From NCBI GenBank assembly GCA_036172245.1, contig JAYWIR010000008.1, positions 3,224,001 to 3,288,000 of the forward strand: a stretch of 64,000 nucleotides of DNA, read 5' to 3'. The notes under the pieces are model-generated. The model was not told where the DNA came from. It made no database searches and worked only from the letters and a program-made list of their open reading frames with translations. Position 1 is the stretch's first letter. The number at the start of each line of letters is the position of its first letter. Shown in pieces: positions 6,929 through 64,000 of the stretch. The position numbers were made by a program, and so were the translations under genes. The stretch comes from Raillietiella orientalis (Eukaryota).

Positions 6929-6979
6929 GCTGCAGACTGGATAACCGGGTGTGCTCCAGAGATGAGAGGTGCTTCAATG
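6929..6979 (+). CDS. IA-2: IA-2 exon, start of RESP18-homology region: (G)CRLDNRVCSRDERCFN(D)
   Basis: Acceptor ttccag and donor gtgagc; 51 nt, phase 1-1. Cys spacing matches the IA-2 GC-x6-C-x5-C pattern, and it joins DNVFGEC in the next exon. Confidence 0.85.
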
Positions 6980-8948
6980 GTGAGCCATTTTTCCCCACCC
7001 CGCTCCACCTCTCCGCCCTTCGAGTAGCTCGCTGCACTCTTCGGGTCGCGGAGTGGGGTTCACCCGACCCTCCCTCAGCGACGAATCGATACGCGCGCCA
7101 TCTGCCGTCAGCTTCGGGAACTCGGTCCGTTCCTCAGCTCCGAGCTTTCCGGAACAGCCCTCGTCTTGCCGGCGCTGCCGCTGTTACATTTCCTGCTAAG
7201 GGGAGGGGTGAGGATGGAGTGTCCCTCTTCTCGAGTCCTGGACGTCCGGCTGCCGACCGCGGCAGCGCTTTTTTGCGCCTCCCCCTCAGGAGGAGGGTAC
7301 ACGGCCGCTGGCAGCTCTCCGTCCGTCATTACCCGGCAGAGAACCATTGCACCAGGGTTCGGCTTCGACTCCTTTCCTCCCCACAGGAGGGATGCGATGC
7401 TGCGACGTCCCCTGTGGGTGAAGAGCTTCCGGTAGCGGCTAAGGGGAACGCGTGCGTTGCCTGGAGTCTTCCCAAAGGTCTCGAATGTTCCGGACAACTC
7501 TCGATGCAGCGCCAAGCCACATCGAGGGGTGCAGCCGTCTCCATCAGCCGAGAGGTCTCCCCCTTCCCCCTTTTTCGTGGGTCTCGCCCTCCCAGGCGTG
7601 CATCGTCCGCCTCTTAGATTCCGTAAGTTTCCTTCCGGAGTCTGCGAGGATTTCCGGAATCTGTGCCCACTCTCGAGGCATCTCGAGGTTCCCTCCTTCC
7701 TAAGACTCCGCGTTCCTCCCCCCCCCCCACCTTCCCCTCACAACCCCAAGGTCCCTGGCGCGCCTACAAAGGGTTATTCCTGCCGAAACGCCGCTTGGGG
7801 AGCTGCCATTTCTGAGCACGGGCAGTCAGGACGGGGAGAAGGAAGGCGGAGACGATGCGGCTGTGGTCTCCAGAAAGTCGACGGCACAGAGGCAACGATC
7901 TGGAGGGCCATGCAGCTGTTCAGGATAGGGGGAAAGGGTGGCGTCTCGGTTGGGCAAGGGCAGTCAGAGAGCACGGCCACTCGCTAGGAGAACCGAACAG
8001 GAAAGGAAGAAAACGGTAGGTGTCATCCATGCGCTCGCGGCAAGGAGGACGCCTCAAGGGCAGGGGATCAGCTCGATTCCTTGCATGGAGACGACCACTG
8101 CCATGCGAGAGGCAAGGACGCGTCTGATGGGGCATCGAGGAGATCTTCGGGTTACGTCCGGCTGATCCCAGGTCTTCCGTGTTCCTCACCCCCTTTCCCC
8201 CCAAGGTCACTGCAATCCTTCGGGAGAATTTGTTTTTCGTGACCCCTCATTGTCTCCCACTGCACTCCTTTCTTTTCCCTCCGAAGAAAGGATGAGGTGG
8301 ACCTCTGTTCTCTTTCGACCTGAATCCATTGGGAAGCTGCAGGTGGACTCCTCCGCAAGGTCAGGTTGGAGCCTCCCCAGGCGGTTGGGAAGGGAAGTTG
8401 GAAGACCGCTGTTACCTGGAGACGGGAAGCACGCAGGGGCCTTGCGTACTTCCCAACTCCAGGAGGAGAGCGAGGCGGGGGGACGCCTCCGCGACTGACA
8501 CGCGGGTTGGGAAAACTCTTGGTCTTGTGACCGTGCCTCCAACCCCCGCGTCCCCCGGGTCCCGAGGGCACTCGGGAGAAGCCTGTGGTGGCTCCAGCCG
8601 AGGAGATCCCCTTGCATCCTGTCGCCCTAGGGTCGAGCCGGGGTAGCTCTCATACGCTTCTCGAACTGCGCTGCCAGGGAACTGTGAGAGGATACCCGGC
8701 TGCAGCAGGGCGTACAGGAAACGAACGGACACTTTCCGCGCGGAGGAGCGATTTCTACTGGAAACCTCCACGGCAAAGGATGCGAGATGGACGTGCATCC
8801 TCCAGGATGACCTCACGTCTCCCTTCCCCACCCCTGCTCCCCTCTCAGAGCTTGCAGTGCTCACTCCAAAGGGTGTTTCGAAGGGGTCGGCCTCCAGCCA
8901 AATGCCGCCGTTCCCGTTACTTTGGCGATCTTTTCTCCGGTTTCCTAG

Positions 8949-9144
8949 ACAACGTCTTCGGGGAGTGCCTCAGTCTTTCGAACTTTGGAGACGCCCAAAG
9001 CATCTGGCTCAGCCCCGACGACAAGAAGCAGATCCTGAAGCTTCTGTGGAAGCAGCTGAACCTCCTGAGGAGCGGAGGGCACTCCCTGGCCGATCCCCTC
9101 TCCCAGTGCGTACTGAGGAACATCCTGACGTCCATCCGAATTGG
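8949..9144 (+). CDS. IA-2: IA-2 exon, RESP18-homology region: DNVFGECLSL...LADPLSQCVLRNILTSIRIG
   Basis: Acceptor tttcctag and donor gtaagt; 196 nt, phase 1-2. Contains the DxxFGxC and L...G.S..D..SQCVL motifs and GC3-rich codons. Confidence 0.9.
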
Positions 9145-14972: not shown

Positions 14973-15142
14973 AGTGAGATACAACGGAGCTGCCTGCGAT
15001 GACCACACAGGGATCCGGGCGTTTCCTGAGACACCTTTGCCTCGACTCTCTGCCAGACAAGCAGCAAACGAGAAGCAGCAGCAGCAACAACAGCTGTATA
15101 GCGGCCTGCAATACCATCACCTCCTGCAACCAAATCCAGCAG
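14973..15142 (+). CDS. IA-2: IA-2 exon: VRYNGAAC...QQQQQQLYSGLQYHHLLQPNPA
   Basis: Acceptor after atttcctttatccgaccgacag and donor gtgagt; 170 nt, phase 2-1, fitting both neighbours. Carries a further Cys and a short polyQ. Confidence 0.75.
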
Positions 15143-18100: not shown

Positions 18101-18279
18101 CAAATGTGTTGCCTCTTTCTTATCTGCGGTAATCCCCGAAGGCTCGCCTGTTGAATGCGGCTCCGGGAACGGGTCAGGCAAATCAACACGGATGGTCAAC
18201 GGGGACACCGCACGACATCCGTCTCGCAGTGCCAGGCGTGCACTCGACCTTAACGCGCGCGCTTCCGGGACTCTGAGCC

Positions 18280-18608
18280 ATTCCGCATCCTGCCGGCTTC
18301 GTGCTGCAGAGCGTGGTTGTCCCCGTCGTGTCCCAGGAGAACCCACGTCTGTTTTGCACGAGAAGTCTCCATTATTCGAAAGGATTTTTCCGTTGCCGGA
18401 GTTTCGATGGATCACCTTGCGGATATTTTCCATGACTGTGCAACGAATCCCTACTTGGAAGATGTGCACGAGGCGATCCATCAAAACCCCGGCAACAGAA
18501 AAATCCTTTGAAATCATGGAGGCTCCTCGTACCAAACAGACGTGGGCTCGCCTGGGACGCGACGGGGACAGCGACGCTTTGCAACGGGACGCTGACGGGA
18601 TTCTGAAT
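18280..18608. repeat. Long imperfect palindrome (arms 130-150 bp, 23-nt loop)
   Basis: 18303-18432 aligns without gaps to the reverse complement of 18456-18585, with about 23 mismatches by manual count. Weaker pairing extends to 18280/18608. Confidence 0.9.
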
Positions 18609-20329: not shown

Positions 20330-20950
20330 GAATAAAAATAAATACACGTCACATGTGTTCATACATAGCATGGATGTACGTGAAATGAATATGAAAGTAT
20401 CGAATTATGAACGCACGTACCTATGGAACGATCGAAATGCCGAAAATAAAATTCCTCCATTGTTGAGGAAGTTTCGTTTCCTGGGCGCCGGAAACGACAG
20501 CATGAGGAAATGCCAAATTCCCCTTAAATTTTTTTTACGTTGTTTTGCTTTTTTAATTTTTTTTCCCCACTATATTTAATCGTCACCATTGTTTGTCATT
20601 TTTTTATAATTCGACAGTTATACATTCCTTTAATATATATTTATTACATACATTTACGACATAATAAACAAATGTATTTATTTTTATGACCTTTAATACC
20701 TATTATTAATTATGTTAATAATGTTTATGTTAATAAACATGAATCAATGTATGTCTTAAAATAATATTAATATAAATACATACGTGTCTGAAAATAATTT
20801 TTTTATTATAATCTATATACGAATGTACATAATAAGCATATATGTTCATTTTTTTGGATAATTTCATAGCGTACATTAATCAATCCACATGTGAGCTTAC
20901 ATATTATTATATAAAATAAACACATGTATTTATTTTTAAGACCTTTCAGG
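20330..20950. mobile_element. AT-rich foldback/MITE-like element, copy 1
   Basis: 20400-20740 aligns directly with 28780-29130, and 20830-20940 is the reverse complement of 28475-28580. Confidence 0.6.
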
Positions 20951-20959
20951 ATTTTGAAC

Positions 20960-22850
20960 CGAACCTGTTTTTGACACCAATTAGTTTCCGCTTTACTTTG
21001 TGGGAATCTTCTCGTTCATCCAAGTTCACTTGTTAATCACGAACTTTTTTAACGTCCTTTCTCCCCCCTCTAAACAGACAAATCGGTCTGTCCTCTTTCT
21101 TCCTTCCTGACCGAGAAGCATAGTTACAACGATAAAGGATGGATTTTCCGCTTATCTTTTTCCGATACCCATTCAATAGCTCCGTGTAAAAGTAACGGTC
21201 ATGCACAATTACGATTCCAGTTTACCTTGTGTGCTTGAAAACAGTCTCCAAGACACGGAGCAGTATTTGAATGATCTGTAGGTTCAATGAAAGATAATGC
21301 ATCAGATTTTCCTGGTCAAAGCTCACGTGATGCAACTTCCGCTGCTATTCTTTTTTGCCCATTGCAGAGCAAGCACAACCATCTGATATTTCTATACATT
21401 TATTCTTTGTCGTAACTCCGCTTGTATGCTTTAAAAGTTCCCACATCCCTCATTACTATTGACTATGCAGTTCAACATCCCATTTTCATCACTGAATTCT
21501 TCTTCTGACGTTGCTCGATTCCCCGTTATCAAACGCACCTTCGTTACTGTTAAGAACGCGCTCCCGTGGTGAGTAGACAACCCGAATTCCAAGAGCCATA
21601 AAGGTCGCTACCTCGAAGCTTCCACAGACATCTGCCGCCACTCTAAGAAGGGTGGACTTTCCCTGACCTATCATTCCAGGTTCAGCTGGAGGTAAGGGTG
21701 AAAGTTCCTTCCATAATTTGCTCAGCATGGACTGCTTTACTCTTGCTGTACAAACACACTGGCGTGACACGCAGTCCACACATGAGTAAAACAGATCGAA
21801 CCCTACTAATGGGACGCGTGGGTAATTCCATCTAGAAAACCAAAAGCCTGTCGTTTTGCAAAATGCCGAATGTGGTTTCGATCCTACGGTTGAGGTTCCA
21901 AGAGTGGTTCCAAGGTTGCGTCTTGCTTTCCACAAGGAATGGTTCGGGGAACCTGTTGGTCCAAGCAACCGTGCAAACACCAACTTACCTTCGAGTGAGA
22001 ACACTGGATGTACGAAATCCCGGCACCATGGTACATTGATTAGTGAGGTGACGTTGGCAAGAAGCAGCAATCTAATAGAAAATCAAGGGCACTTGTCTAA
22101 TGACGGAACAGAAATATCTATGCTCGCTCCCCACCCCCACCCCAGCTGGCTGCAACAGCCCGGAAGGCATAAATAGGGCACCCACCTCTCTTCTTGGTCA
22201 CACACTAAATTGGAAAAAGCATTCCTTCCACATTTTAGAGATGCAGTGTTTATGGACCGGTTCGAAGATCTTGCTTATAACGAGCACATAGTTACAAGTG
22301 ATCTCGCTGTGGATTTGACTCATTGGCATTCTAAGATTATGGGGGTTTTGCAATCAAAAATTTGACAAATTACTCGTTCGTTCTTTCAGCTGACCACTGA
22401 AACCATTACTAGCAATCCCCACCGGTCAATAAACCGACTCATTTACGAATATTTCCATCTCATCATTATTTTAGATGCAAATGTTTTGACCAGTTAGTCG
22501 ACCTGTCCTGTTCGGGAAAAAAAAAGAAAAAAGGCCCACCAGCAGCCATTCAAAAATTTGCCCACTTTTCTCACGAATAATATTTCTGGTATTAGAAGCC
22601 GGTTTTTTGACTGGATTGGGATGCTGTGCCGGTCCCTGATTGATGCACTTGTTTCACTGGAAGGACAGGAGAAAGATCTTCAACAGCTCCTTGCGCGAAC
22701 TCTCTCTGGGATCTAATCATCTAATTTTCGGGGAAGAAACGAGGAATCTCCATGAACCGCTGTCGGCTCGCATCAAGCTCTTCTTCCACCGTTGTTCTCC
22801 TGTTCGATCAGCAATGATGTGCTGATAATGTGCTGGCCATAAATTCACTC
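20960..22850 (-). mobile_element. Decayed Penelope-like retroelement RT region
   Basis: Minus-strand motifs in order: YPRVPLVG, LSKLWKELSPL, DVCGSFEVATF (SFDV motif), MYR.ISDGCA..MG, LGDCF (degenerate YxDD), GYRKKISGKSIL. AT-richer than the flanks and ends against the foldback element at 20950. Confidence 0.55.
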
Positions 22851-23424
22851 TTGCATTATCTCGCTTAAGATAACATTCCTAACAGCACCTGCCAGCTAAG
22901 GTCAGGAGTATCTTCACCACCTTTTCCATCCCGCGTTGATTAAAACGGTTATCGGCTTAATAGCATCCATTCTTTCAGTTTCTCAACTGTTCCTCCAATA
23001 GAACCAGGAGGCCACTTTTATTACGTCGATGAGCCATCTCTGGGAATTAAAATTGAGCTCTCCGCGTCCATAAGATTACACGAGGACGGGAACAGGGCTA
23101 CAGCCACATCCTGGTCGCGTGCAATAGAATCGGGAAGCCAATCTTCTTGGCTTCGCGTAGCCACTCCACATGCATGGAAAGGGGCGCATGAATTTCAAGG
23201 GCTGCCGTGAGTCAGATGCCTCCACGGGGATTATGGTCTACTTTATTGTTTCTGGACTTCTACGTGGAATTCCCAATGAACGACCACTCCCTCGTGCTTG
23301 CGCCTCCGGACGTGCACTACACCCAGGGTAATTGCCACCCGTGCCCTCTGATGAACGGATCGTTCAGCTAGGAGGAACGCCGGGCGGCGAACCGTGGAAG
23401 CGAAGCTAGGCGGAGAAGAACACT

Positions 23425-24105
23425 TCTGTTGGGATGCTGCGCCCCAGCACCATGAAGTTGTCCTGTAGGCTTCAGGTGCAGGAAACTGGTGGAAGCAGAC
23501 GGAAAACCCCCAATATCCCCGTTGACAGGCAGGGATCGGAACCTCCAGGGTTCCCTTCCGGTTGTGAGAATGGAGTTCTCCATAGAGTACCACGGAGCTG
23601 GTTGGTGCCTCTCCAGAGTGTAAGAAGCAGCGCGCTGCTCCCTTCGGAAAGCGACCCTTCAGGGAAATTGGGAAGCATCCGTTCGGGGTTCTCTTCAGAG
23701 GAGGAGGAAACAGGAAGCAGATCCTTTCCGGGGGGCCCTCCGGAAAAGAAATTCCAGGAGCGGATCTTCCGGGTTCCCTTCGGAGAAGAAATGCGTAGTT
23801 CATCCCATTTCGGGGAGAATAAGAAAGAGGAGATTCCCTTCGGAATTCTCTTTGGAGACAACCAGGGTGGAGGGTTCCCTCCCAAGCGCAACCTCCATTT
23901 GGAGCCCTTCCTGGATTCATAGGGTGATCCCTTCGAGGTTATTCCCATGTAACTTGAAGAGTTGCTGCATGCACCCTCGAATGGAGCACCCTTTGTGTCC
24001 CCCCCCCCCTTCCCCACAGAGGCGAACGGCCCTTCAGCACTCCCTGAGAACCAAGGAAAGAAAGAAAGAAAACCTGAAAGAAAGGGAAGAAAGGAAAAAA
24101 AATCT
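23425..24105 (+). mobile_element. SINE-like dispersed repeat family A, copy 2
   Basis: Same body, with ~40-bp internal subrepeats (..ttcccttcggagaagaaat..) and an A-rich tail at 24050-24102. Confidence 0.7.
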
Positions 24106-25189
24106 TAAGGAAACCAGAACCCCGAAGGATTCCCTATCACTCTGAGATCCATGCCGGCACCGAGAAGGGTCCCGGTGCCAAAGAAACCCCGGCCAAAGTC
24201 TCCGAGATCCGGAAGATGGAACGAGTCATGACGCGGCAGTCCGGAGAGCAGAACACAGGTGGCTCGAGGATGGACGGAAGAGGATCCAGGCGAGGGCGGA
24301 AGCAACGAGCAGAGACGATGCGACCTGCCCCCGTCGCCCCGAGCTCGTCTGAGGATTGCGATCTCCGGCCGCGAGTCGCGCCCGCAGAAGGACTGATCCC
24401 AAGTAGCACCATCAGCACCATCCCGAGGGAACTTTCCCGGCGATCATCGGGATGCCTTCGAAAGAGCCGTCCGGCCGAACGGAATCTCGGCCCACGTGCG
24501 CGCGCAGAGTTGATCAGCCGCGGGGGCTGCTCGACCGCAGGATGCCGCCCTGCAGAGTCCGAACGGCCTTCCTTGACGGCAGACGAGGAAGAAGGTGAGA
24601 CTGACCATCCCCCCCAGCGCAGAACGGAGGTGCGCTCCAAAGGGGAGGGGGAAACTCCCTTGACAGTACGACGTCATTGCCATGGCCCCACGACATTCAT
24701 TCTGCATCCCTGGGTCGCAGATTTAGAAAGCGTACAGGAACAGTTCCGGAAGCGGCGGTTTCACTTCCGGATTCGTAGTCCGCACAACGCTGGGGGTTCA
24801 GCGAATGCTCCCAGCGACGCCCCTCTTCTGCGTGCTTCCTCGAGAAGAAACCAACGCCCCACCACCGAGTTTCTTCGCTCCGATTGCCACAGGGGGCTCT
24901 TCAGTCGATCTCACTTCTCCTCTTCTCCGCTGCTGGTCGTCACCCTCGGCTTCTGGCAAGCACTCCTTCGCTCGGACAAACGGACTGGGCGTTTATGAGC
25001 CGTCCCCCACTTGTTCCCATCTCTCACCATCCTCCCGCCGAGCTTCTCCACCGGGAAGGCCCTCGAAGGAAAAGCGGCATCCGGGACCACCCTTTCTTGG
25101 CCATCTTGGCCTCCGTATCATCTCCGTCTTGCGTTCATGACTGACGGAAGTAAGACGGTGCGTGGAAGGGGGGGGGGGGGAAACGGAAG

Positions 25190-25773
25190 GGGAAGAACGA
25201 GGGTGTTGGACGGGAAGGGAGAGCGAAGGAGGGGCTCGCAGAGGAGCCCCAGTTCCGAGAAGCGCCGGCAGCGGCGCTGCGAAACACAAGGTGCTTCGCA
25301 GAGGCCCGCCGGTCTCCGAAGACGGGCGGGAAAAGTCGCCGGAGGCTCCCGTGGGGGCGGGCCGTCGACTTGCGAGAGAGGGGGAGCAACTGAGGAAGAG
25401 GAGGAAGGGGAGGAGAGGGTTCTGCGGAGAAGCACGGCGGCCCTTCGCGCGGCACGCGGGAGCGCGGAAAATACGCGCGCCGACCCCCGCAGCCGGGTCG
25501 TGGAACGCAAATCTCGAGGGCACCACGTCCGGAAGGCGAAGAGGGACGCCGGGGTCCAAGCAGGCGCGCGTTGCGCGCACGCTCCACCGCGGACGCGAGC
25601 GTCGGCGTCTCCCCCGTCTCTCCGGTGGCGGCGGTCAGGGATCGTCGGCGTCCAGCCGGGAACGGTGGGGCGAGGCGACTCTACGGACGAGAAGGGGAGG
25701 TCAGAGACGGAGGGACGGCAGCAGCGAACGCGCATCCCGGGGAGGCGTTCGCCCCAGAGCTGATCCGCGACCC
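25190..25773 (+). repeat. Left arm of ~580-bp GC-rich inverted repeat pair
   Basis: Reverse complement of 32690-33272; 25416-25672 appears identical to the reverse complement of 32790-33046. Confidence 0.95.
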
Positions 25774-25994
25774 CACCAGGGGGCGGAACCAAGCTCCGTC
25801 CCGCGACCAACAGCACCCACTCCTTGGTCGTGGGTGCTGCAGCAACTTCTCGGACAGTCTGGAGATCTGCTCGCCAGCTGAGACATCTTGACCTCGGTAG
25901 CAACACGCCTCGAGACGCGCTCTCAGGGAGGTCACGGAACACTTCCCGTTCTTCTTCAGCAACATCGGTTTCTCTGAGCATCTTTTGTCCCCAG

Positions 25995-26111
25995 TGCCCA
26001 TGCAACACCGCACAGAGGGATGGATCGAGAAGCAGAGAGGTCCGTCAGACCTGCATGATGACCCCGGAGGAAAAGGAGCCAGGAACCCCCTCCAGCGCGA
26101 GAAGACGCAGG
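25995..26111 (+). CDS. IA-2: Probable IA-2 pro-region exon: VPMQHRTEGWIEKQRGPSDLHDDPGGKGARNPLQREKTQ
   Basis: Strong acceptor tcttttgtccccag and donor gtgagg; 117 nt, phase 1-1, open. No conserved motif, so the call rests on splice signals and phase. Confidence 0.6.
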
Positions 26112-26296
26112 GTGAGGCTTACGTGCACAACAAGAACACTCGCTCCTGGCCGCACCTGGCCTACGGAAGGATGAGGCTGGAATCCCGGAGACCCAACCCG
26201 TTCTCCCTGAATCGCCATGGCAATGTTCCGGCGATACGCCCCACAACAGGACTTGGGATAGATCGCGTTAGTATCCCGCGGATCGGTGTCGAATAG

Positions 26297-26443
26297 CTGA
26301 AAGGCAGTTTCGTTCATTCGATGACTACCTGGACTACGACGGAGTCAACCAGCAGCTGATCGCCCGATTGCTGTCGAGGAACGCCGCTTCCGAAACGGAC
26401 CCGGACTACGAGGAAGAATACAAGGAGGATGACAGCAGCAGAG
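26297..26443 (+). CDS. IA-2: Probable IA-2 acidic pro-region exon: AERQFRSFDDYLDYDGVNQQLIARLLSRNAASETDPDYEEEYKEDDSSR
   Basis: Donor gtgagc; 147 nt, phase 1-1, with strongly coding-like GC3 codons. The acceptor (gtgtcgaatag) is weak. Confidence 0.7.
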
Positions 26444-28474
26444 GTGAGCCCTGGACTCTTTCCCGCTTCGCGTTCCCTTCCGCCGTCTGGAGCTGCCTTC
26501 CAGGTCCGGTCACCGTTCGCTCGAGCAAAGGATGCTGCGCGATTCGAGACTTGAGCTCTAGCTGCGTTCTGTAAAGGGGGAGTTTCCGAGTGCGAGGAAG
26601 GAAGAGAGAGAAGGGGGGGGGGGATAGTAAGCTTTGCCAAGTTTACTTCCTTCTCTCCTCTTTCCTCTTCTCGGAGGATAACAGCCGTGGAGATGATGCC
26701 GGGGAAGACTTTGGTTCTTCTTTTCCTCCGACCTCAGGCCTGGAATGAATCTTCGGCGGCTCCTCGCAAGCATCGGTCTCAACTAGCACGGTTGTTCAGA
26801 CTCAAGCGCCACGCGAACATCGATCCGCGTGGCGCTTGTGGAGACCATCACCGGCTCGGTCGGGTCACGAGCGATGTCCGGCTGTCTGGACGCGCAGCTG
26901 ACCACATTCGGATCGATCGGCAGACCAACCCAATTCCCGTCGCGAATCGACTTCCGGTCGCAGAACAGCGCCCTCGGTGCCCCCGTTCTTTCTCTCTCAC
27001 CATGCGATTTCCACCTTCCGATCGGGAGGACCCTCCGCCCCGGCAACCTCGCCCCGGGTGGTCCTTGCGGGGCTGGACAGTTCCTAGGACGCCGGCTAGT
27101 GTGGACCCGGAAGCAGTCAGAAGCCCTCCGTGTCCCGGGACAGGAGGCAAGCAATCAGCTTCATGCACCGCGGACAGAGGTCGCGAGACCACCACCCAGC
27201 TGCGAGGCTTCCCCACCAAGTGCTGGGAGAGAACGGACTCGTGCCTCCGGAACTTTCCTGGAGCTGTGTAGCCGCGCGTCTTGCGCCGCGCCGGCCACCA
27301 CCAGGTGCGCAGACCACCTCCGTTTCTTCCTGCGGACTTGTCAGGTCACTTCCGGGTCCCCGGAAAAACTTTTCTTCCCTCAGCGCCCTCCTGGAAGATT
27401 CCCTTTTCGCTTCCTTCCTGTTCTCGTGTTCCCTACCCGCCCCTCCGCCTCTCAGCTGCATCACGGCGGGCGCCGCCGCCTCTGCGGCGCAGATTTCGTT
27501 ATCGCCAGAGGGGCTCACCGTCCCCGCAGCCGAACCGTCCAAGTGTTTCCGTGCTTCCTCGCCTCGTTGCCCCCTCTTCACCTGGAGATTTTCGAGGTCA
27601 TCCGTTTCCCAACATGTGCTAAACGACCTTCATCTAGATCTGAGCCTACTTTTCTTTTCCCCCTCCCCCTCTCTTCCTATAGATGGGAGAAGTATCTGCT
27701 TTGATCTTTGGGTTTGCATAGGCGTGTTCCGCTCCCGACCCACGGTTTTCCACGGTCCGGTCCCCGTGTCACCTAGTCGTGGATTCATCGCCGTCAGAAA
27801 ATACATTCCCGGACACTTGCTCCACCTGTTGAGCTTGCGGCCAGCACTCCCTCCCCTCTGCCTTCATTCGGGAAGCGGGAAGAGGGCAGAAGCAGGCGAT
27901 GCCCTCTGATTGTCTTCTTGCCTTGAGGGGTGCCCTGCGACCTCGCGGCCTTCCGTTTTCCGAAAACGTTACCACCGGGCAGAAGTGCCACCTCTTTCGT
28001 TTCAAAACGAGGCTCCTGCCTGAGAAGAGCGGAAGTCACCAAAAGTGGAAGCGCTTCGAGGAAGCGCCCACCGTCCCGCAAGCGCCGAGGGAGCACCATC
28101 CTGGCGTTTGGCGGGATAGGGAGCTGCGCCCAAGCTTGCGCTGAACCGCGTTCGCTGCTGCAGCCTAAGGCCAACTTTCCTCCGCGTCCTGGGGACCTGC
28201 CTCGCTTGCGAACTTCCGCCTTCTTTTGCTCCAAGCGTCCTCCGCCTTCTCCTCCTCGTTCCGTGCAGGGATGCAGGGGAAAACCCACACATCCGGCGCA
28301 GGGACGGCGGGAGAGCCGCTGGCCATCCCTGCTGCCTCCGATTCGTTCCTTCCCATCCGTCAAGCATTCCCGAACCTTCCGGTCTGTAGGACTGGGGCGC
28401 CATCCAAAGCGACCCCAGCCGCTTGCTCAGCTTGCCAGCATAGGCCTTCGAGGCGGTGCCCATCAAACTCCAAC

Positions 28475-29220
28475 CATAAAAAATAGATACATCTATTTAT
28501 TTTTATGCTTATTTACGGGTAAATAGGTAGATTAGTATATATTCCAAGGATTATTAAAAATAAACATGTGTGCTTATTATTATCTGAAAACATATTTATA
28601 TAGAGATTGATATACAAATTTATTTTAGCATACATATTTATTAAAAGAATTAGTGATATGCATTGATGTATATTATTGATACATATTTTAAAGATCATAA
28701 AAGATATATGCTTATGTTATATCTTAATTTATATTTATATATATAACAAATATGTATTAATGAATGAATATAAAAATACTGAATTATAAGCACATGTGTT
28801 TATCGAACGATCACAATGCCAAAAATAGAATTCATCAATTGTTGCGGAAGTTCCGTTTGCTGAATGCTGTAAATGACAGGAAAAGGAAATACCAAATCTC
28901 CTTTCTTTTTTTTTTTTTAATTTGGTTGCTTTTTTTCATTTTTTTCCAGTATTTTTGATTCTCACCATTATTTTTCATTTTTTATAACTTGATATTCATA
29001 TATTTGTTTAATACATATTCGTTATATACATAAAAACACATTAATGCACATAAACAAACATATTCATTTTTATGATGTTTTTATATATTATTAATTAAAT
29101 CAATAATGTGTATGTTAAAATACTTATGCATATTAATTTATATGTCGCTATATATATAGATATAGATCAGTGTGCATAATAGGCATGTAGAATTTGTTTT
29201 TTATAATGTTCCGGGATTTT
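28475..29220. mobile_element. AT-rich foldback/MITE-like element, copy 2
   Basis: Sharp AT island. Imperfect inverted arms built of AATAAACACATGT-like units surround a core shared with copy 1. Confidence 0.6.
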
Positions 29221-29229
29221 GATCGTCTT

Positions 29230-30120
29230 TTGAGGAAGGACCCCTCCTTAAGCAAGGTACAAGAAAACGTCTTCGCAAAGTGTTGCTCCGCACTGGGGGA
29301 ACAGTGCAAAGATATACCCTTAAATGCGCCTCTCAAGTGCAAATTCTCTGGAACCAAGTGCCGCCGAACGCGTGGTGGATCAGCTGCGAGATTCTGAACT
29401 GGGGGAGTGCTGGGAAATCTGGGTTTCTCGGAAGCGTGGCAGGCGAGGTTTCATCCTAGCTGCAGAATGCCGCCAAACGTTTCGTTGCACCCGAGAGACC
29501 TTTGAACTTTTGGAATAATCGGGAAGGGACTTCCAGCATGCAGAATGGGACGGAAGGTGGAGGGAGAAGAAGGGGCTGAGTGAGAACCCTTTTTTATCTC
29601 GCCGTCTGAATGCATAAGGGGATTCTGGGTACACCTGGTTCGAACGATCAACGTCTTGAGTGACCAGCCCGTTGAGAGCAGCTGTCGTCGCTGAGGACTT
29701 CCCAAAGCAATCAGGTGGAGCAACGAGGCTTCGTGGAGCACGCTGCCGTATTCGTTCCGTAGGGAATCCGAGGCCCTTGCATGCAACCTACAATGATGTC
29801 ACGCTTGCGGGATGATGTGCAGCTTCGCATGCAAGATGCGTCTGGCTCCTTCTGGATCGCGAAGCAGAATTCGCTTGTGGAGGTGCCGACAAGCACGCCA
29901 CCAGCAGCAGAGCGCTGCCATTGCTGAAGAGCAGGGCCGTAGAGAACGTTTGCCCTGTGGCTAGAAGCCCTGCTGCGAGCCGGGTTCCAGGGTCACGCGC
30001 TCGGTAGGGAAACCACTTTCGCTTTTGTCCCACCTTCCTGCTACAGGGAAATCTTCTAAGTCCTGTTCAACTCTTGCTTAACTGACGCCGGCTTCGGCGC
30101 TCTCTCGAAGCAAGGCTTGA
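29230..30120 (-). mobile_element. Decayed LINE ORF2 fragment (I/Nimb-like post-RT region)
   Basis: Minus-strand EYGSVLHEASLLHLIALGSPQRRQLLSTGWSLKT resembles the LEYGS..AS..L..LD..Q..LR..TGA.RT block. Confidence 0.5.
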
Positions 30121-31079
30121 GTGACCCTTGCAAGGGCGTCGATGTCATGGGGAGCGCACGGGCAATGTTTGAGCACAACGTTGGGGGGGGGGGGGGGAAC
30201 CAGGATGCTCAGATGCCCAGAATCTGCACGCATATGCACACGCACACACGTGTGCACGTGTTGGTCATTGATACAACGTCTGAATGAGCAGAAAGCTGAG
30301 GCAGCGGACTTTCAAGGGAAACGCTGCTGGGAGTCTGCGTCTGTCCGAAAATCTCTTCTCCTTACGACGCTCATCCTTCTCCAGTCTCCGAGGTTTCGGC
30401 AGGACCCAAAATCTGGCCTCGCGGCTATGCCGCTTCGCTAGATCTCTCCGGTCACGGCTGACTGCCGGAACTCATCTGCGTCCGTCTCTCGCTTCCCTTC
30501 GTCCGGGTGCATCCTGTAAAGTCGTCGGCTTCCCCCCTCCCCTTCGAGCGGGTCAGCTCGCCCTCGAAGCAACCAGGACGTGTCATGCCGGTTCCTCTTC
30601 GTTCCGCCTCGGCAGCGGCTGGGCAGTTCCTCTGCAGACCAGACCGACGTGCGTTGCTTCGGGGGGACTATCGATCGACTTGTGGGCGATGGCGCAGACG
30701 CCAGACCCGTGCCATCTAGTGCCACTACCACCAAATACCCGCAGCCGCCAAACTGATGCAGCCACTATGCCTTCTCGCTTCGGCTTCTCTACACACTTCG
30801 TTTGGTGTTCGAGGTGAGCATGCTCTCTGAGGGACACCGGGACAACCGCTGTATTTACAAGGATAGCGGTTGCCTTGTTGTGTCAATGCTGTCGCCCACT
30901 CGGGACGCTCATCGTTGGCACCCGGTCACGCTGGGGCGTTTATTTATGAAAAAATAAACATACAGGGAAATGGCAGGATGCATGACCTTGTCTCGTCGCA
31001 GAGACATAGGAGGAACCTGCTGAGAACCGGTGTGCAGTCCGGCGAGATTTGCCTCGGCAGCACAGGGGAGGGGGAGACA

Positions 31080-31880
31080 CGCAAAAAGAAAAATAAAAGG
31101 AAATAATATAAAAAATTTGGGGGTTCAGGAATGATGATCGTGCGCTGGAGGGTGTCTGCATGCTTGCAAGGATGCCGGCAATTTCCTGTTGCAATATTGC
31201 CAGATGAGGCCATCTTGACACTGTCCTGATGAAAAGGATAGCAAATAGATGGTGTCCCTGTCGTTCTGTCCTCCTCTGGCATTGCTTCATGCTGCCGCCA
31301 CGGTCCCGCCGCGTGGCAGCAGAGTGCTGCTGGGGATGCGGCCGGCTTGAGGGCGTCGCGCAGGAAGAGGAGTTTCAGAATGTCTCTGGGACTGATCTCG
31401 AGGATCCTCAGGGACGCGGAGAAGCGTTCCCACAGGGGACGGAGGGCAACACAGCCCAGGAGCACTCTTTCTCCGCACCTGCTGCAGTTGGGGCTTACCC
31501 TCTCTCGGGGCCAATGCTGTCGGCGGACGTTGCACGGGAGATCCCAATACCATGTTCCTGCGAGCAATGTTTCCGGTGCAGATCTTGGGAGAGGGAGGCA
31601 CAGGGAGGTGCAGCGAGCTCGGACCTTGCGAACGGCGGCCAAAGGGCTCCCACGGCGAAGAAATGCAGTCGTTTGCGAACTGGGACCGACGCCTCCCAGT
31701 TTCATCCCCCCGGCCGGCCGGATGTGGAGAGCCTTCCGCGGAAGGCTCTGATCGCTGCTTGACCGCTTCGTGGCGGGTAACGGCGCATCTCGCCACGTCG
31801 CACTTGCTGACTCTTGTTCCGGCCCCCATGCTCTTAGCTCGAGGAGGGAGATCCACAGCGCCGGAGGATGGAGAGGGGGG
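31080..31880 (-). mobile_element. 3' end of a LINE (RNase H end, CCHC knuckle, T-rich 3' region), copy 1
   Basis: Minus strand reads VSPNCSRCGE....LWERF..LRI....RDIL. Clearly homologous at nucleotide level to 51880-52330 (shared gccgccacggtcccgccgcgtgg and gagggcgtcgcgcagga). Confidence 0.65.
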
Positions 31881-31932
31881 AATGCGAAGGGACATCCCTT
31901 CCCGAAGATAATGCTCTCCCTTTTTCCCGCAG

Positions 31933-31985
31933 GCAAACCCCAGGAGTTGCAGAAATCGCTGGCAGAGACCACGCCCGCCACAAAG
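31933..31985 (+). CDS. IA-2: Probable IA-2 exon: GKPQELQKSLAETTPATK
   Basis: Strong acceptor ctctccctttttcccgcag and donor gtacgt; 53 nt, phase 1-0. This is the phase change needed between 26443 and 33874. Confidence 0.7.
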
Positions 31986-32689
31986 GTACGTTCTTGTCTC
32001 TTGGCGTCCATTCGCTCGGGCCCGCCGGGCTCGGGAAGGGCGGGGAGGAGACGTGACGGGCGCATGACCCGTCGCTGGGATGAACTCCTGGAACTGGAGC
32101 GTCAGCGGGAAGGAGTTCCGGGGTCAGGTCAGCGGTCCCGTCCCTTTCTCTGTTCCCCTCGAAAGACGCCCGGGCTGGTCCTCCCGCTTCCAAAGAATGG
32201 AAACCTCGACCCACCTCTAACCCAGACCTCAAAGTCGACACCTTAGCGGTGCTCTCTCGCTGCGGCCACGGAGTCGTCCCAAACTCCCGTTGGATGGCCG
32301 GTTGCCCCGGCCATCCAACGGGTTGCCACAGTGCCCCATGCATGGTTGCATAGCTGCCCCGGTGATGCTGCCCATCTCCTCACGGAGGCCTCTTTGCTTC
32401 GCTCGCCCTTACTCCGAGGAGCGGGTGGCTGCTCCGTCCTGGCTGCCCTCATCCGGAGGGAGCTCTGACCTCGCTGACTGGATCCTCGGCGTGTTTCCTC
32501 TTCGGGCGGCCTGGACAGGAACCGAACCTTCCAGGTAGCGCCCGGCTGCGAGGGAAGTGCAAAGCGTGCAGGAAGGCACCGGGAGGAAACACAGCTTGGC
32601 CGTCATCGAATTCGCCAGAGAAGCGCGGAGGCAGCAGGGAGCGGAAGTCCTCCATCGACAGCAACGGAGGGAACTCTTCGAAACGGCTG

Positions 32690-33272
32690 GGTCGCAGACC
32701 GGCTCCGGAGCAAACGCCTCCCCGGGATGCGCGTTCGCTGCTGTCATCCATCCGTCCCTGACCTCCCCTTCTCGTCCTCAGAGCCGTCGCGCCCCACCGT
32801 TCCCGGCTGGACGCCGACGATCCCTGACCGCCGCCACCGGAGAGACGGGGGAGACGCCGACGCTCGCGTCCGCGGTGGAGCGTGCGCGCAACGCGCGCCT
32901 GCTTGGACCCCGGCGTCCCTCTTCGCCTTCCGGACGTGGTGCCCTCGAGATTTGCGTTCCACGACCCGGCTGCGGGGGTCGGCGCGCGTATTTTCCGCGC
33001 TCCCGCGTGCCGCGCGAAGGGCCGCCGTGCTTCTCCGCAGAACCCTTCCCTTCCCTTCCTCCTCTTCCGCAGTTGCTCCCCCTCTCTCGCAAGTCGACGG
33101 CCCGTCCCCACGGGAGCCTCCGGCGACTTTTCCCGCCCGTCTTCGGAGACCGGCGGGCCTCTGCGAAGCACCTTGTGTTTCGCAGCGCCGCTGCCGGCGC
33201 TTCTCGGAACTGGAGCTCCTCTGCGAGCCTCCTCCTCCGCTCTCCCTTCCTGTCCGACGTCCTCCTCCTTCC
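32690..33272 (-). repeat. Right arm of ~580-bp GC-rich inverted repeat pair
   Basis: Mirror of 25190-25773; the ORF track gives the same peptides in several frames on opposite strands. Confidence 0.95.
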
Positions 33273-33873
33273 TTTATCTCTCCCGCCATCGGATCCCCCC
33301 TGGAGAGCAGACCCCGATGGAGGACCTCGGATCGCCTCGCAAGGCTACAGGTTTCGGAAGTCCCCGAGTGGGAGCGTCTCAGGGATCGTCCAGACTGCGG
33401 TGCTGCTCGCTGTGATTCCCAGCCTCGGACGAGGCAACGTATGCTGGAGGCGCCTTCCTGAAGCCCACGATTTCCGACGAGACATTGCATCTAAAAGAGG
33501 AGCCCGCCGTGGCAGCACACCCTGTCACTTTTGCTTCCTCGCTCCCGCGCTGAGGAAGGACCCGTGCACCTTGCTGGACGCTGGGAGAGAGGGGAGGGAA
33601 GGGAGGGAGGTTACTGCCTTGGCCTTCGCGGATGGAGTTGCCACTTGCACGAAAGCTCCCTGCCTCCGGAGCCACCGGGATCGCGGTGATGTGAGAGGCC
33701 CAACAGGGCGCTCCCTGAGGTTTTTGCGCTAGCCTTGCCTCGTGCAGGAAGTGGCCGCTCGAGAACGCTCTCGGACCTTCGCCCCGCGTTTCCCGGGGGG
33801 ATGGTCCTCTCGCCCGCTTTCGGAGCGGTGAACACGGCCGGAGGCGAGGCACTCGGAAGACTCTTTGTTCCAG

Positions 33874-34016
33874 GAAGGAGGACAGCGCGAGGTGCCCAGC
33901 TACCTAGTCGGACGGTCCAGAGGGAACCTGCCAGAAGGATCGGCGGGGCAGAGCATGGACGCGTCTTCCTACGAAATCATCGACACGTCCTACGCCTACG
34001 TCACTCTGGGAAGCAG
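33874..34016 (+). CDS. IA-2: IA-2 exon, start of mature SEA-like ectodomain: EGGQREVP...YEIIDTSYAYVTLGS(R)
   Basis: Acceptor ctctttgttccag and donor gtgcgt; 143 nt, phase 0-2. DTSYAYV corresponds to the first strand of the IA-2 ectodomain (YGYI in vertebrates). Confidence 0.85.
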
Positions 34017-34266
34017 GTGCGTTGGTGGCCAGGGGGCGACCTTCCTCTTCGACCCGGCTGCTCCGCCGCACAGCTGCAAAGCGGCGACCTCCGGCGCTTC
34101 CCAGACGCGCCCGCCACCGCGGCGCGGGCCATCACGTCGCACTTCCGCTCGCCAACGGGAGCGACCCCTCAGACCATCAGACCACATTGACCCCGCGTCT
34201 TTGCCTGCTACCCTCGACCAGGGGCGCAGCCGCTCAGGCTAGGTTCTTCGCACTTATTCCTTCCCA

Positions 34267-35190
34267 ATGATGAGGATGACTGCGATTGTGATTGTGACGG
34301 TGATGGTGATTGTGATGATAATGAAGGCTGCGACTGTGATGATGACTGTGGTGAGAATGATGATCACGATCATGATGATTGTAACGATGATGATTACCAC
34401 AATGATTGTGACGACGCCGATGATCGCAATATTCATGATTGCGATGGTGATTACGATGCTGATGATTGTGGTGATGATTACAATATCAATGATTGTGATG
34501 ATTACGATGTCGACATTGTAATGTTAATGGTGATGACGATTGTAACTGCGATGATTAATAGTACTATCATTATTACATTGATAATGATTGTGACGATGAT
34601 GATGATAGCAGCTATTGCTTCCATTCTCCCCATTCCATTCATATTGCTATTATGGCCAGCATCATTTTTGCAGTCATGATTACGATTGCTATTATTACTT
34701 TAGTTATTATTGCTATTCCTTCTTCTAGCATCATTATCATTGCTATTATTATTACTATTGCTAGGATCATTGATGTTATTGCCAATATTATTACCCTTTT
34801 GAATTGCTACCAATACTATTGATGATAATATTATTACTGCTAATCTCAATATTAACACTGCTGCCACAGTATTATTGTTAACGCTACGATTACTGCTATT
34901 ATTGTTTCTATTAGTAATATTATTTTTACTCCAATTAGTGCTATCATTATGGATTTTTCAGCTACTGTGGTTATTCTTGTTGTTACATTATTAATGCATT
35001 ATTAACATTATTAATGCTATCATTACTATTACTGTTAGTGCTCTTGCGATCATTATTGCTATTAATATTGCTGTTACTATCGATGCTATTTGGGCTACTG
35101 CTTTTAATACTTATTATTTCCATTACCATTACCATTACTACATTGTCGTTACTACTATCGTTATCACTGCACTTTTTCGTATTATTAGCG
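34267..35190. repeat. Degenerate trinucleotide microsatellite ((GAT/GTG/ACG)n then (ATT/ACT/ATC)n)
   Basis: 3-bp periodic low-complexity sequence, directly visible. Confidence 0.9.
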
Positions 35191-45572: not shown

Positions 45573-45767
45573 TCGCGGTACAGTCCCCTGGTCCTGTCGT
45601 CCAACGGAAACCACCCCAAGATCTACCCGGTCGCCCTAGGCCTCTTCGGGGCCGTCCTGGCCGCGGTCGTCGCCGCCGTGGTGATCTACGCCCTGCGCAG
45701 GCACTCGAGGTCAAAGCGCAACCTCGAAAAGCTGCTGCACCAGGAGGGGAAGAGCCAAGACTACCAG
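45573..45767 (+). CDS. IA-2: IA-2 transmembrane exon: SRYSP...VALGLFGAVLAAVVAAVVIYALRRHSRSK...KSQDYQ
   Basis: Acceptor gcattctag and donor gtaggg; 195 nt, phase 0-0. Hydrophobic helix, basic stop-transfer residues and the conserved DYQ. Confidence 0.92.
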
Positions 45768-50694: not shown

Positions 50695-50816
50695 GACCTC
50701 TGCAGATTGAGGATGGGTCGGAGCTCGCAGGACCACTTCGACTCCACGGTCATCCACAAGCTCTCTAAGGACAAGGAGAACCGCAGCAACTCTTCCCACT
50801 CGATCGTTCCTCAATG
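50695..50816 (+). CDS. IA-2: IA-2 juxtamembrane exon: DLCRLRMGRSS...SNSSHSIVPQ(W)
   Basis: Acceptor gtgtttttcaag and donor gtgagt; 122 nt, phase 0-2. Completes the YQ-DLCR..M motif. Confidence 0.92.
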
Positions 50817-60868: not shown

Positions 60869-60973
60869 GCGTACATGGAGGATCACATCTGCAACCGTGA
60901 CAGGCTGGAGCGGGAATGGTGTGCCCTTTGCGCCTATGAAGCGGAGCCCAGCAGCACGAAGGTGGCCTCTAAG
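60869..60973 (+). CDS. IA-2: IA-2 exon: AYMEDHICNRDRLEREWCALCAYEAEPSSTKVASK
   Basis: Acceptor ctccttgcag and donor gtgagt; 105 nt, phase 0-0. Hallmark YMEDH..N.DRL..EW.ALC.Y.AEP. Confidence 0.97.
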
Positions 60974-61931: not shown

Positions 61932-62048
61932 GAGCAGAACCAGAAGAAGAACAGGTACCCCGACATCCTCCCGTACGACCACTCCCGGGTGATCCTCAAC
62001 GCTTCGATGAACCAGAACTCGTCCGACTACATCAATGCGTCCAACATC
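61932..62048 (+). CDS. IA-2: IA-2 exon, start of PTP domain: EQNQKKNRYPDILPYDHSRVILNASMNQNSSDYINASNI
   Basis: Acceptor tcttctttcag and donor gtgagt; 117 nt, phase 0-0. PTP motifs KNRY, PYDHSRV and DYINAS. Confidence 0.97.
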
Positions 62049-64000
62049 GTGAGTAGGGGCGCCGTCCTCCTTCTGACTCCTTCTGGATCTCCTGCTGGGC
62101 TCGGAGTCAAGGCACTCGTAGGGGCGCCGGTTCCCCGCGCCGTCCGCTTCCCTCCGAGTCCAAAAGGAGATCCCCCGCAGCGGTCTCCAAAGAGGCGCCC
62201 TCTTCTCGTCTTCGGACTCGGAGGATGCTGGGAAGTCGTCGTCTGCGGAGAGGGAGCAAAGATGGAAGGGGAAGGTGAGGGGGAAGTGCGAGGAGTTCTT
62301 CCACTCTTCCGCCTTCCTCTTCCTCCTCCCTTCCGGCCCGGTCTGCGCGGAGCCGGAGTCCGCGACCTCGACTACCCTCCAGAAAGAAGGGACGATGGGC
62401 ACCGAGCAGGCGAAATCAAACCCTACCCAGTTGAGGGTACTGGAGGGGCCGGGGAGCTCCATTCCGGAAGAGTAGGGAGGCGGCGTTACCAGAGGAGACC
62501 TCCACGGCAGAGATGGCGGCGGGAGGAGGGCAAAAAAGGGCAAGAGCTTCCGGCGGTCTTGGAACAAGGAAACCAAGGAGGAAGACTCTCACCGCCTCCC
62601 TCCCACAAGGGGACCCCGGGGAAATTGCAGCAATCACCTTTTCCTACTCCCGCAACCTCGACTTCCCGCCTCCGGATCGGCTGCAGGTGATCGCGGTCCC
62701 TCGAGGAGCTCGAGACACTGGAGAGCGTACAGGCGGATCGGGGAGGCAGAGGGGAAAGCAAGGGATGGAGGAGGAGTGAGATAGACCTCTGCTGCCCCGG
62801 CAGGGACGGAGCGCCCTGGTCTTTCAGCGATCCGGAAGAGGCGAGGCGCTCTTCTTCCAAAGTGACTCTGGGGAAGCGAGCAGGAGAGTGAATTGGGGTG
62901 CAAAGCAAAAAACTCCTTTCCTTTCCGCCACACCCCCTCGTATCTCCCATCGCGCCCTGCAACCGTGAAGTCCTCGCCGCTTCGATTCCTATTCTCCTCC
63001 CTGTACAACCTAGAGGATCTCCTGCTCCCCACCTCCCCTACTGCCTCCAAACTGCCTTGATGACTGTTCCACGTTGCTGTCGGGACCATCCTGTAGGCCG
63101 CTCGCCCGTTCGAGACGCCGCGAATAGACCTAGAGACGCGCCCCCCGGGGTCTGCCACGGATGAGCGCGAACCTGGAGCTCTCCCCGATCCCTCTCTACC
63201 GCGAAGCTCCTGCAGCGTCTCTCAGGCCGCTTTTGCTTTACGGCACCAAGCAGGGGTCTCCCCTAGGCGAGCCACTCCTGGATGCTGCCGCAGTCGAGGC
63301 TGTCAGAATGGCAGAGAGAGAGACTCCCTCTCCCCATGATCTGCTTCCCTCCTACCCCCTTTCTCTCACAAAAGTTCCATGGAGACCACCACCTACCCCT
63401 TCTCCATGCCGTCCCACGGACGCGCGCGGTGCCGTGCCCGGAGTTTCCATGGAGACGCCAGACAAGGCGCTGCGGTTGTCGAGTGGCTGTTCCTCCGGTG
63501 GAATGGCGAGGAAGGGAGGGAAATCCCCATTTCATTTATCTTCCACTATTGTATCCCAACAATCTCACTTTCAATCAAAATTACAACATACTAAATATGA
63601 CACCACTACACTCTAAACCATTATGGAACAATCAGTGATACATATTACAATCCTTCTTTAATCAAAAAATATTTCAGCATTCCAATCCTTTCGTACTAAG
63701 AAACCATACCATAATCTAAAGATAGAAACCAATCTGTCTTACGCCGATCTAAACTCAAATCATGTAGGATTTTCTATTCGACTGAAAATAGGGTAGAAGG
63801 CGCGTCCGCCCTCTGTTCCACGCTGAGACCATTCCTCGTCGAGCTTCCCCATTCCTCCCTCGATTCTCTCCCTTCCCCTCTCCCGTTCGAAGCCGCCAGA
63901 ACGGAAGGGAGGATACGCAGGGCTTCTGACATCCCGTCATTCTGGGCGAGTGAACGGGGGGGAACAGCAGCACCTGGGAAGCCCTCAGGATGATCTGGAG

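Follow-up and report, generated by a model that had tools for sequence, protein, structure and literature searches.

Two intron segments of about 0.58 kb in this DNA from Raillietiella orientalis lie in opposite orientation on either side of three small candidate exons. Could their pairing in RNA alter the splicing of these exons, and how did such a pair arise? The window is the whole stretch of DNA analysed, 64,000 nt long. The two segments (arms), their identical stretch and the loop between them were located as follows, without strand.

25191..25773, left arm, situated in the intron that precedes candidate exon A; GC 0.71, CpG o/e 1.18
25417..25673, 257-nt identical stretch of the left arm; its counterpart in the right arm, calculated from the gapless arm pair, is 32789-33045
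25774..32688, loop between the arms, 6915 nt, with the three candidate exons and an internal inverted repeat
32689..33272, right arm, the left arm's reverse complement; lies in the intron that separates candidate exon C from exon D

A repeat search identified the main arm pair at 25233-25773 and 32689-33229 (541 nt, 96% complementary, 6915 nt apart), with an outer 42-nt extension at 25191-25232 and 33231-33272 (83%). These were merged by blastn into a single alignment of 25191-25773 with 33272-32689 (584 columns, 95.03% identity, E = 0). Global alignment placed 29 differences in the 584 columns, namely 28 substitutions and one indel. The arms were reverse complements as originally predicted, with coordinates agreeing within 1 nt. 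Between the left arm and the AG acceptor at 25995 (candidate exon A) lay 221 nt, and between the candidate donor at 31985 and the right arm 703 nt, close to the predicted spacings of about 220 and 700 nt. The bracketing of three small probable exons by near-identical, opposite intron segments was thereby confirmed as genuine.

No third copy of the arm was present within the 64-kb window by blastn, even with word size 7 (E<=1e-3). Self-blast of the window produced 11 other repeat pairs of at least 60 bp, in families of two to four copies each, all 64–81% identical. The prediction that these were far more diverged than the arms was borne out (64–81% versus 95%). One diverged inverted repeat (28550-28760 and 29008-29207, 67%) lay within the loop. 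Homology past the limits of the arms was sought by sensitive blastn of 22–29 kb against 29–37 kb, which returned, besides the arms, only this unrelated in-loop repeat and one 47-nt match at chance level. An exact 45-nt pattern from the core had no match in metagenome contigs, and Rfam gave none at gathering score over the whole window.

Three other identities for the repeat were ruled out. The GC contents by codon position in the arm (0.69/0.70/0.74) showed no codon periodicity, which argued against a coding-derived segment. Folding of the single arms was no better than that of shuffled sequences (z -0.69 and -0.85), which argued against a structured RNA in its own right. An autonomous 8-kb transposon with long terminal repeats was rejected from the lack of any Pfam family in 82 ORFs of at least 70 aa (both strands, 24.5–34 kb), with no transposase in the arms, and from the coding-like host exons inside the unit.

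For the arms to pair, they must be transcribed in the same pre-mRNA. The exons of the host gene were placed as follows.

8942..9139, + strand, N-terminal IA-2 exon, collinear with about residues 24–133 of seven orthologues
15033..15142, + strand, candidate upstream exon with a clear donor (CAG/gtgagt) at 15142 and an uncertain 5' boundary; ends in phase 1; without homology support; GC3-GC2 p=0.15
33874..34016, + strand, exon D, starting in phase 0; its motif ...SSYEIIDTSYAYVTLGS aligns with the mature-ectodomain start of PTPRN2-like orthologues
45606..45767, + strand, transmembrane/juxtamembrane exon of IA-2, by tblastn with orthologues
60869..60973, + strand, AYMEDH...ALCAYEAEP exon, a diagnostic match to PTPRN2 (2qep) and PTPRN (2i1y)
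61932..62049, + strand, first tyrosine-phosphatase-domain exon (Pfam Y_phosphatase, 2.1e-9); the gene continues past the 3' end of the window

The exon at 60869-60973 gave four PDB matches at E<=1. Only the PTPRN2 and PTPRN structures fitted (2qep_A, 1.3e-10; 2i1y_A, 1.9e-10), and the remaining two were unrelated (E>=0.08). This was in agreement with the IA-2-family host named in the original prediction. A library-wide search with the same exon gave 328 matches at E<=1e-3. Ten of the matched clusters were checked, and the five that carried a source name were all PTPRN/PTPRN2-like or uncharacterised arthropod and mollusc proteins. A protein-homologue search with this exon gave one candidate and none at E<=1e-6, a strict threshold for so short a query. 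The phosphatase exon matched positions 1–36 of the Y_phosphatase profile, with the remainder of the domain beyond the window, and its own protein-homologue search returned only generic vertebrate PTPRE-like proteins at 59–72% identity.

PTPRN2-like orthologues gave collinear tblastn matches at 8942-9139 (best E 1e-4), 33946-34005 (E 0.05), 45606-45767, 50689-50817, 59625-59675, 60869-60973 and 61932-62049. No Pfam match to the RESP18-like or Receptor_IA-2 domains was obtained in 237 + strand ORFs of at least 40 aa (33.5–64 kb) and eight exon pieces; this is weak evidence, because these domains are split over exons. Besides the start of Y_phosphatase, Pfam detected only an SF3A3 fragment in the + strand ORFs of 33.5–64 kb. 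Taken together, the matches identified the host as an invertebrate, probably arthropod, IA-2 (PTPRN-like) gene on the + strand, with the arms within its transcription unit. From the IA-2 match at 8942-9139, transcription therefore probably begins upstream of both arms, and since homology-supported + strand exons lie on either side, both arms would be contained in one pre-mRNA.

The three enclosed exons, all bounded by canonical AG/GT, sum to 117+147+53 = 317 nt.

25995..26111, + strand, candidate exon A of 117 nt, between acceptor ...ttttgtccccag and donor gtgagg; its chain frame is open; without a homology match; GC3-GC2 0.21, p=0.068
26297..26443, + strand, candidate exon B of 147 nt, encoding an acidic peptide rich in Tyr; acceptor with a weak polypyrimidine tract, donor gtgagc; GC3-GC2 0.40, p=0.0018
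31933..31985, + strand, candidate exon C of 53 nt, between acceptor ...tttttcccgcag and donor gtacgt; GC3-GC2 p=0.074

An open frame ran from the upstream exon (15033-15142) through A, B and C to D, and the frames agreed at all four consecutive junctions. The GC contents of A–C at the three codon positions were 0.61/0.41/0.72, compared with 0.55/0.40/0.84 in the supported exons. Their combined GC3-GC2 was 0.311, against 0.012 +/- 0.077 in stop-free intronic stretches (p=1.5e-4). Exon B gave the strongest coding signal of the three; A and C were singly short of significance (p=0.068 and 0.074). No homologue of A–C was found by tblastn (best E>2), phmmer (domain i-E >=12) or a word-index search, and a protein-homologue search with exon B gave four candidates, none at E<=0.1. 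Of the earlier claim that three IA-2 exons are enclosed, the coding-like composition and the consistent frame stood; homology to IA-2 did not appear. These results suggested that A–C are probably real exons. A crude exon scan of 9150-33873 found no further strong candidate inside the loop. The same scan pointed to an alternative acceptor for exon B at 26379.

Cofolding of the two arms gave -1355.6 kcal/mol, a gain of -831 kcal/mol over the self-folded arms, with inter-arm pairing predicted for 564 of 583 nt. Five shuffled controls gained only -58 to -83. The long GC-rich stem of the original prediction was reproduced as a predicted duplex of about 564 bp. Formed within one pre-mRNA, this stem would place the donor at 31985 near the acceptor at 25995. 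It should then favour back-splicing to a 317-nt circle, skipping of the three exons to a frameshifted linear RNA, or both. The frame-chain check agreed that omission of the 317 nt shifts the frame, from phase 1 to 0, as had been proposed.

That flanking complementary repeats promote back-splicing and exon skipping, the premise of the original prediction, is described in print (PMC4201285, PMC4617980, PMC8330042). Inverted repeats of 30–40 nt are reported to be enough for circularisation (PMC4201285), and repeats of about 400 nt drive co-transcriptional back-splicing at Drosophila laccase2 (PMC4617980). In mouse Sry, at least 400 complementary nt are reportedly needed (PMC4201285). According to the same reports, many exons that do not circularise are likewise flanked by complementary repeats (PMC4617980), and greater hairpin stability can sometimes inhibit circularisation (PMC4201285), so a stem as strong as this one might fail to yield a circle. 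The geometry of the locus is sound, and it may be regarded as a candidate member of this known kind, any RNA outcome of arm pairing being argued from analogy.

The nearest likeness is to Drosophila laccase2 and PlexA with their DNAREP1_DM repeats, arthropod genes in which complementary intronic repeats closely flank the exon or exons downstream of a long intron (Kramer et al. 2015, PMC4617980). Those repeats are described as transposon copies, 69–75% identical over 106 and 272 nt, around one exon (PMC4617980). The arms here are 95% identical over 584 nt, unique in the window, without transposon features found, and placed around three candidate exons. Joining of a downstream donor to an upstream acceptor by intronic repeat pairing is shared with the human ZKSCAN1, HIPK3 and EPHB4 Alu pairs and with mouse Sry (Liang and Wilusz 2014, PMC4201285), the Alu pairs being about 82% identical over about 290 nt (PMC4201285). 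A circle together with a matching skipped linear RNA, the same two products proposed here, is described for the reverse complementary matches of C. elegans zip-2, where the match is 13 nt long and conserved across nematodes, compared with 584 nt here (Cao 2021, PMC8330042). Should a circle or a skipped isoform occur, few natural cases outside model organisms would be so clean: a neuroendocrine gene would be combined with a near-perfect 0.58-kb repeat, single-copy at least within the window, and a simple deletion would serve as the test. The locus would in that event also illustrate, on a small scale, how gene conversion can keep the arms of an inverted repeat within a gene identical. Should neither RNA occur, it would be an ordinary intronic inverted duplication, still useful as a warning that circularisation is not predicted by strong complementarity alone.

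The differences between the arms were unevenly distributed. Identity dropped toward both edges (84% in 25191-25240, 82–92% in 25641-25773), with eight differences in the outer 43 nt, 15 in the inner 100 nt and six in the central 440 nt. None fell in the 257-nt stretch, the longest identical run in the global alignment. When 29 differences were placed at random, a run of at least 257 nt arose in one of 200,000 trials (p=5e-6). The identical core and the rising divergence of the original prediction were thus recovered, and the uneven spread fits its suggestion of arm-to-arm gene conversion. Recurrent inversion of the loop, also suggested, was judged unlikely to be tolerated, because probable coding exons would be inverted. 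Selection for pairing gained no support. Transitions between the arms were not biased toward base-pair retention (10 pair-preserving G·U versus 13 pair-breaking A·C), so they gave no pointer to such selection, and the analysis gave no sign that selection maintains the repeat.

The pattern fits an old local inverted duplication with a homogenised centre. A segment of about 0.58 kb would have been duplicated in inverted orientation inside the gene, leaving copies before and after the three small exons. Edges 15–19% diverged would make this duplication old. Non-crossover gene conversion between the arms may then have homogenised the central 440 nt or so and produced the identical core. We consider the whole of this explanation, with a stem that possibly favours back-splicing or skipping, moderately probable.

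Other readings differ from it on the fate of the RNA. Exons A–C might not be real, so that the arms would lie in a single very large intron (from about 15143 or 9140 as far as 33873) and the stem would merely loop out 7 kb of it. Such looping would yield no circle or skipped isoform, and could be neutral, aid removal of the long intron or feed the siRNA or editing machinery. The failure of three different searches to find homology for A–C agrees with this, as do the weak acceptor of exon B and the abundance of open frames that comes with GC-rich sequence, the window having 502 + strand stretches that run for 40 aa or more without a stop. But the codon-position GC of A–C resembles that of the supported exons and is rare in stop-free intronic stretches, the frames agree at four junctions, and the roughly 400 residues that orthologues carry between the N-terminal domain and the ectodomain must be encoded within 9.1–33.9 kb. 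We consider this reading unlikely. At Drosophila hpRNA endo-siRNA loci, too, both arms of a long and nearly perfect inverted repeat are transcribed into a single RNA; here the loop is 6.9 kb with host-gene exons, and the arms show no coding periodicity of the sort expected had they derived from a target gene. Alternatively, the repeat could be a selected regulatory module, its pairing kept since a circle, a frameshifting skip or arm-derived small RNAs tune IA-2 in neuroendocrine cells. An identical core in an otherwise diverged duplication, arms near the splice sites, a long upstream intron (10.85 kb, 15143 to 25994) and a host in a neuronal/neuroendocrine gene class said to be circRNA-enriched (PMC8330042) are what it would predict. 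The lack of an excess of pair-preserving changes speaks against it, gene conversion alone explains the core, and most circRNAs are thought to be by-products (bioRxiv 10.1101/2023.11.08.566217); it appears quite improbable. Its fullest form is a conversion-maintained, selected switch in a dense-core-vesicle gene, in which a co-transcriptional stem of about 0.56 kb would divert part of the IA-2 pre-mRNA into the 317-nt three-exon circle and the frameshifted skipped mRNA and so determine the dosage of IA-2 in neuroendocrine cells; both selection for pairing and gene conversion would then be reflected in the identical core. This we regard as still more doubtful.

Two further readings concern the DNA itself. 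A young transposable element of non-autonomous type (MITE- or SINE-like) could have inserted twice, in opposite orientations, and the arms would then affect splicing, if at all, only incidentally, like Alu or DNAREP1_DM pairs. Among the repeats characterised around circRNAs, most are described as transposon-derived (PMC4617980, PMC8516420), and the window does contain several dispersed repeat families. Those families, however, have two to four copies, and the arm has no third in 64 kb. Two independent insertions do not predict the strongly non-uniform divergence, the arms have no coding capacity, and by eye their ends decay gradually in the alignment, with no terminal inverted repeats or target-site duplication. 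The transposon pair is a weak contender, slightly less probable than the single large intron and ahead of the selected module. Lastly, one arm could be a false inverted duplication made in assembly, or the core could have been made by consensus polishing with multi-mapping reads. Identity does peak where the arms are most distant from unique flanking sequence, as polishing would give. But the window contains no N, 29 positions distinguish the arms, and between the two lie 6.9 kb of unique sequence with frame-consistent exons. False assembly duplications are usually much larger than this repeat and near-identical throughout. An artefact seemed the least probable of all.

The proposed duplication with a converted centre has a counterpart in known DNA. 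In inverted repeats and palindrome arms homogenised by gene conversion, the interior is near-identical and the edges, which lack flanking homology, diverge. The arms here show the same near-identical interior and diverging edges, in a repeat far smaller than the classic sex-chromosome palindromes and situated inside the introns of a gene.

A repeat search of 24000-34500 found a single strong inverted pair, 25233-25773 and 32689-33229 (541 nt, 96% complementary, 6915 nt apart), with an outer extension of 42 nt at 83%. Blastn merged both pieces (25191-25773 vs 33272-32689, 584 columns, 95.03% identity, E = 0). When 90-130 nt of flank was added per side, similarity in the MAFFT alignment faded to noise outside this span. 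The GC content of the arms is 71%, and their CpG o/e is 1.18 vs 0.90 for the window. Global alignment of one arm with the other gave 28 substitutions and one indel, in all 29 differences over 584 columns, placed as follows.

Differences between the arms, in left-arm coordinates
25196-25233: 8
25249 and 25358: one at each
25394-25416, GA-rich patch: 4
25417-25673, 257 nt: none
25674-25767: 15

An identical run of at least 257 arose in 1 of 200,000 random placements of 29 differences (p=5e-6). Reverse-complement arms with a 257-nt core and ragged edges had been described in the original prediction, and this distribution and the placement test showed the description to be correct. The repeat observation is confirmed.

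The gene around the arms had been proposed to be IA-2, and this was borne out. Exon 60869-60973 matched PTPRN2 (2qep, 1.3e-10) and PTPRN (2i1y, 1.9e-10), the only matches of note among four PDB sequences at E<=1. It also matched 328 proteins at E<=1e-3 in a representative protein library. Source names were obtained for 5 of 10 clusters looked up among these: PTPRN2-like proteins of Homarus, Procambarus, Battus and Ruditapes, and an unnamed protein of Darwinula. These names make the source organism a protostome, probably an arthropod. Regular-expression and Pfam scans placed the start of the tyrosine-phosphatase domain at 61932-62049 (+; Y_phosphatase, 2.1e-9). Local tblastn, with 19 long orthologues first and a wider set afterwards, gave collinear matches, all on the + strand.

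Orthologue matches by tblastn
6928-6990 and 8942-9139, +: N-terminal region
33946-34005, +: start of the mature ectodomain
45606-45767, +: transmembrane segment
50689-50817, 59625-59675, 60869-60973 and 61932-62049, +: further matches

RESP18 and Receptor_IA-2 were not recognized by Pfam on single exons. Since collinear + strand matches lie on both sides, both arms are placed by homology within the IA-2 transcription unit, regardless of the status of the exons between them. A fragment resembling a splicing factor lies in the intron between 45767 and 50689, at 47583-48100 (+). Pfam recognized SF3A3 (4.8e-19) in ORF 47583-48074, and SDE2_2C carried on at 47972-48100 in a different frame. Among + strand ORFs of 40 aa or more in 33.5-64 kb, no further SF3A3 domain turned up. 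A partial, frameshifted (retro)pseudogene seems likelier here than a nested gene.

Three candidate exons lie between the arms.

Candidate exons in the loop
25995-26111, +: exon A, 117 nt, AG/GT
26297-26443, +: exon B, 147 nt, AG/GT
31933-31985, +: exon C, 53 nt, AG/GT

One open frame ran from a candidate upstream exon (donor 15142, phase 1) through A-B-C to the homology-supported exon 33874-34016 (phase 0). The predicted frame arithmetic agreed with these junction phases: loss of the 317 nt of A-C shifts the frame from phase 1 to 0. No homologues of A-C were found by tblastn (best E>2) or phmmer (domain i-E >=12), and a word-index protein search gave four candidates, none at E<=0.1. Because the orthologues show little conservation in this region, the missing homology counts weakly against the exons.

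The locus is ~58% GC (CpG o/e ~0.9), and its supported IA-2 exons (903 nt) show a very strong codon-position bias, with GC of 0.55/0.40/0.84 by position. This bias can serve to find exons in this genome. In the proposed frame, exons A-C gave 0.61/0.41/0.72, with a GC3-GC2 of 0.311. Of 20,000 length-matched samples drawn from stop-free non-exon stretches (mean 0.012, sd 0.077), 0.015% reached this value. Singly, p was 0.0018 for B, 0.068 for A, 0.074 for C and 0.15 for the upstream exon. This independent composition test supports the coding nature of A-C, and we consider it quite probable that they are real exons. The polypyrimidine tract of exon B is poor, and an alternative acceptor for this exon, at 26379, came from a crude exon scan.

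Cofolded as RNA, the arms had a predicted energy of -1355.6 kcal/mol, 831 kcal/mol better than two self-folds, with 564 of the 583 left-arm nucleotides paired with the right arm. In five controls with a shuffled right arm, the gain was no more than 58-83 kcal/mol. No rival long complement was found elsewhere in the flanking introns by repeat searches and self-blast. The stem, 221 nt from acceptor 25995 and 703 nt from donor 31985, would bring the two together, in agreement with the proposed geometry of arms flanking A-C. The upstream intron is 10.85 kb on the candidate exon model. Selection for pairing, also proposed, was unsupported: of 23 transitions between the arms, 10 give G·U on + strand RNA and 13 A·C, with no sign of filtering on either strand.

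Liang and Wilusz (PMC4201285) report that inverted repeats of 30-40 nt are enough for circularisation, that greater hairpin stability can sometimes inhibit it, and, citing earlier deletion work, that at least 400 complementary nt were suggested for Sry. The Drosophila laccase2 circle requires inverted DNAREP1_DM repeats, according to Kramer et al. (PMC4617980), who describe ~400-nt repeats acting co-transcriptionally and many exons between complementary repeats that do not circularise. Flanking complementary matches are described by Cao (PMC8330042) as promoting circle and skipped linear RNA alike. The defining product of this repeat-flanked-exon kind is a back-splice junction. The IA-2 layout fits the kind well and, in length and identity, lies at its strong end. 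Among the papers listed by a literature search pairing PTPRN2 with circRNA, nothing was specific to an IA-2 circle, and we make no claim of absence. The locus is a candidate for repeat-flanked exons that could give rise to circRNA, skipping or editing.

A less probable origin of the arms is a pair of independent transposon insertions. Such insertions predict evenly spread differences, whereas those observed were uneven. They would probably also predict further copies in this repeat-bearing window, but blastn (word size 7, E<=1e-3) found no third arm copy there. By eye, the MAFFT alignment showed neither terminal inverted repeats nor a target-site duplication, and in it the arm ends fade rather than stop. 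Pfam recognized no family in the 82 ORFs of 70 aa or more from either strand of 24.5-34 kb, and Rfam none in the whole window. The arms lacked codon periodicity (GC 0.69/0.70/0.74), and each alone folded no better than shuffles (z -0.69 and -0.85).

The arm edges are 81-85% identical and the centre 98.6%. The simplest account would be an old inverted duplication, after which non-crossover gene conversion, in one event or a few, covered ~440 nt. The suggestion of arm-to-arm conversion is consistent with the uneven differences. Recurrent inversion, offered beside it, would be unlikely to be tolerated, because a crossover between the arms inverts the loop with its exons. The original interpretation was partly supported: it stood for geometry, host gene, frame arithmetic and gene conversion, but not for selection for pairing or recurrent inversion.

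Self-blast of the window gave 11 further repeat pairs of 60 bp or more, all at 64-81% identity, against which the arms (95.03%) were a clear outlier. A dispersed family has four direct copies (5442-6023, 23542-23975, 48941-49586 and 52663-53242; 64-78%). Two further pairs are 31169-31438 with 51976-52250 (81%) and 20384-20733 with 28763-29118 (74%). The background divergence of the locus is set by these old interspersed repeats. The AT-rich central part of the loop carries a diverged inverted repeat (28550-28760 and 29008-29207, 67%), possibly a decayed foldback or MITE-like element, next to the copy of the 20384-20733 repeat. Upstream of the left arm, the long intron holds a 330-nt palindrome or foldback (18280-18608) that matches its own reverse complement at 76%. 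Directly past exon 33874-34016, an imperfect tandem array (34270-34604, mostly 18-nt period, 11 copies at 60-76%), one frame of which reads as an Asp/Cys-rich peptide, is probably an intronic minisatellite.
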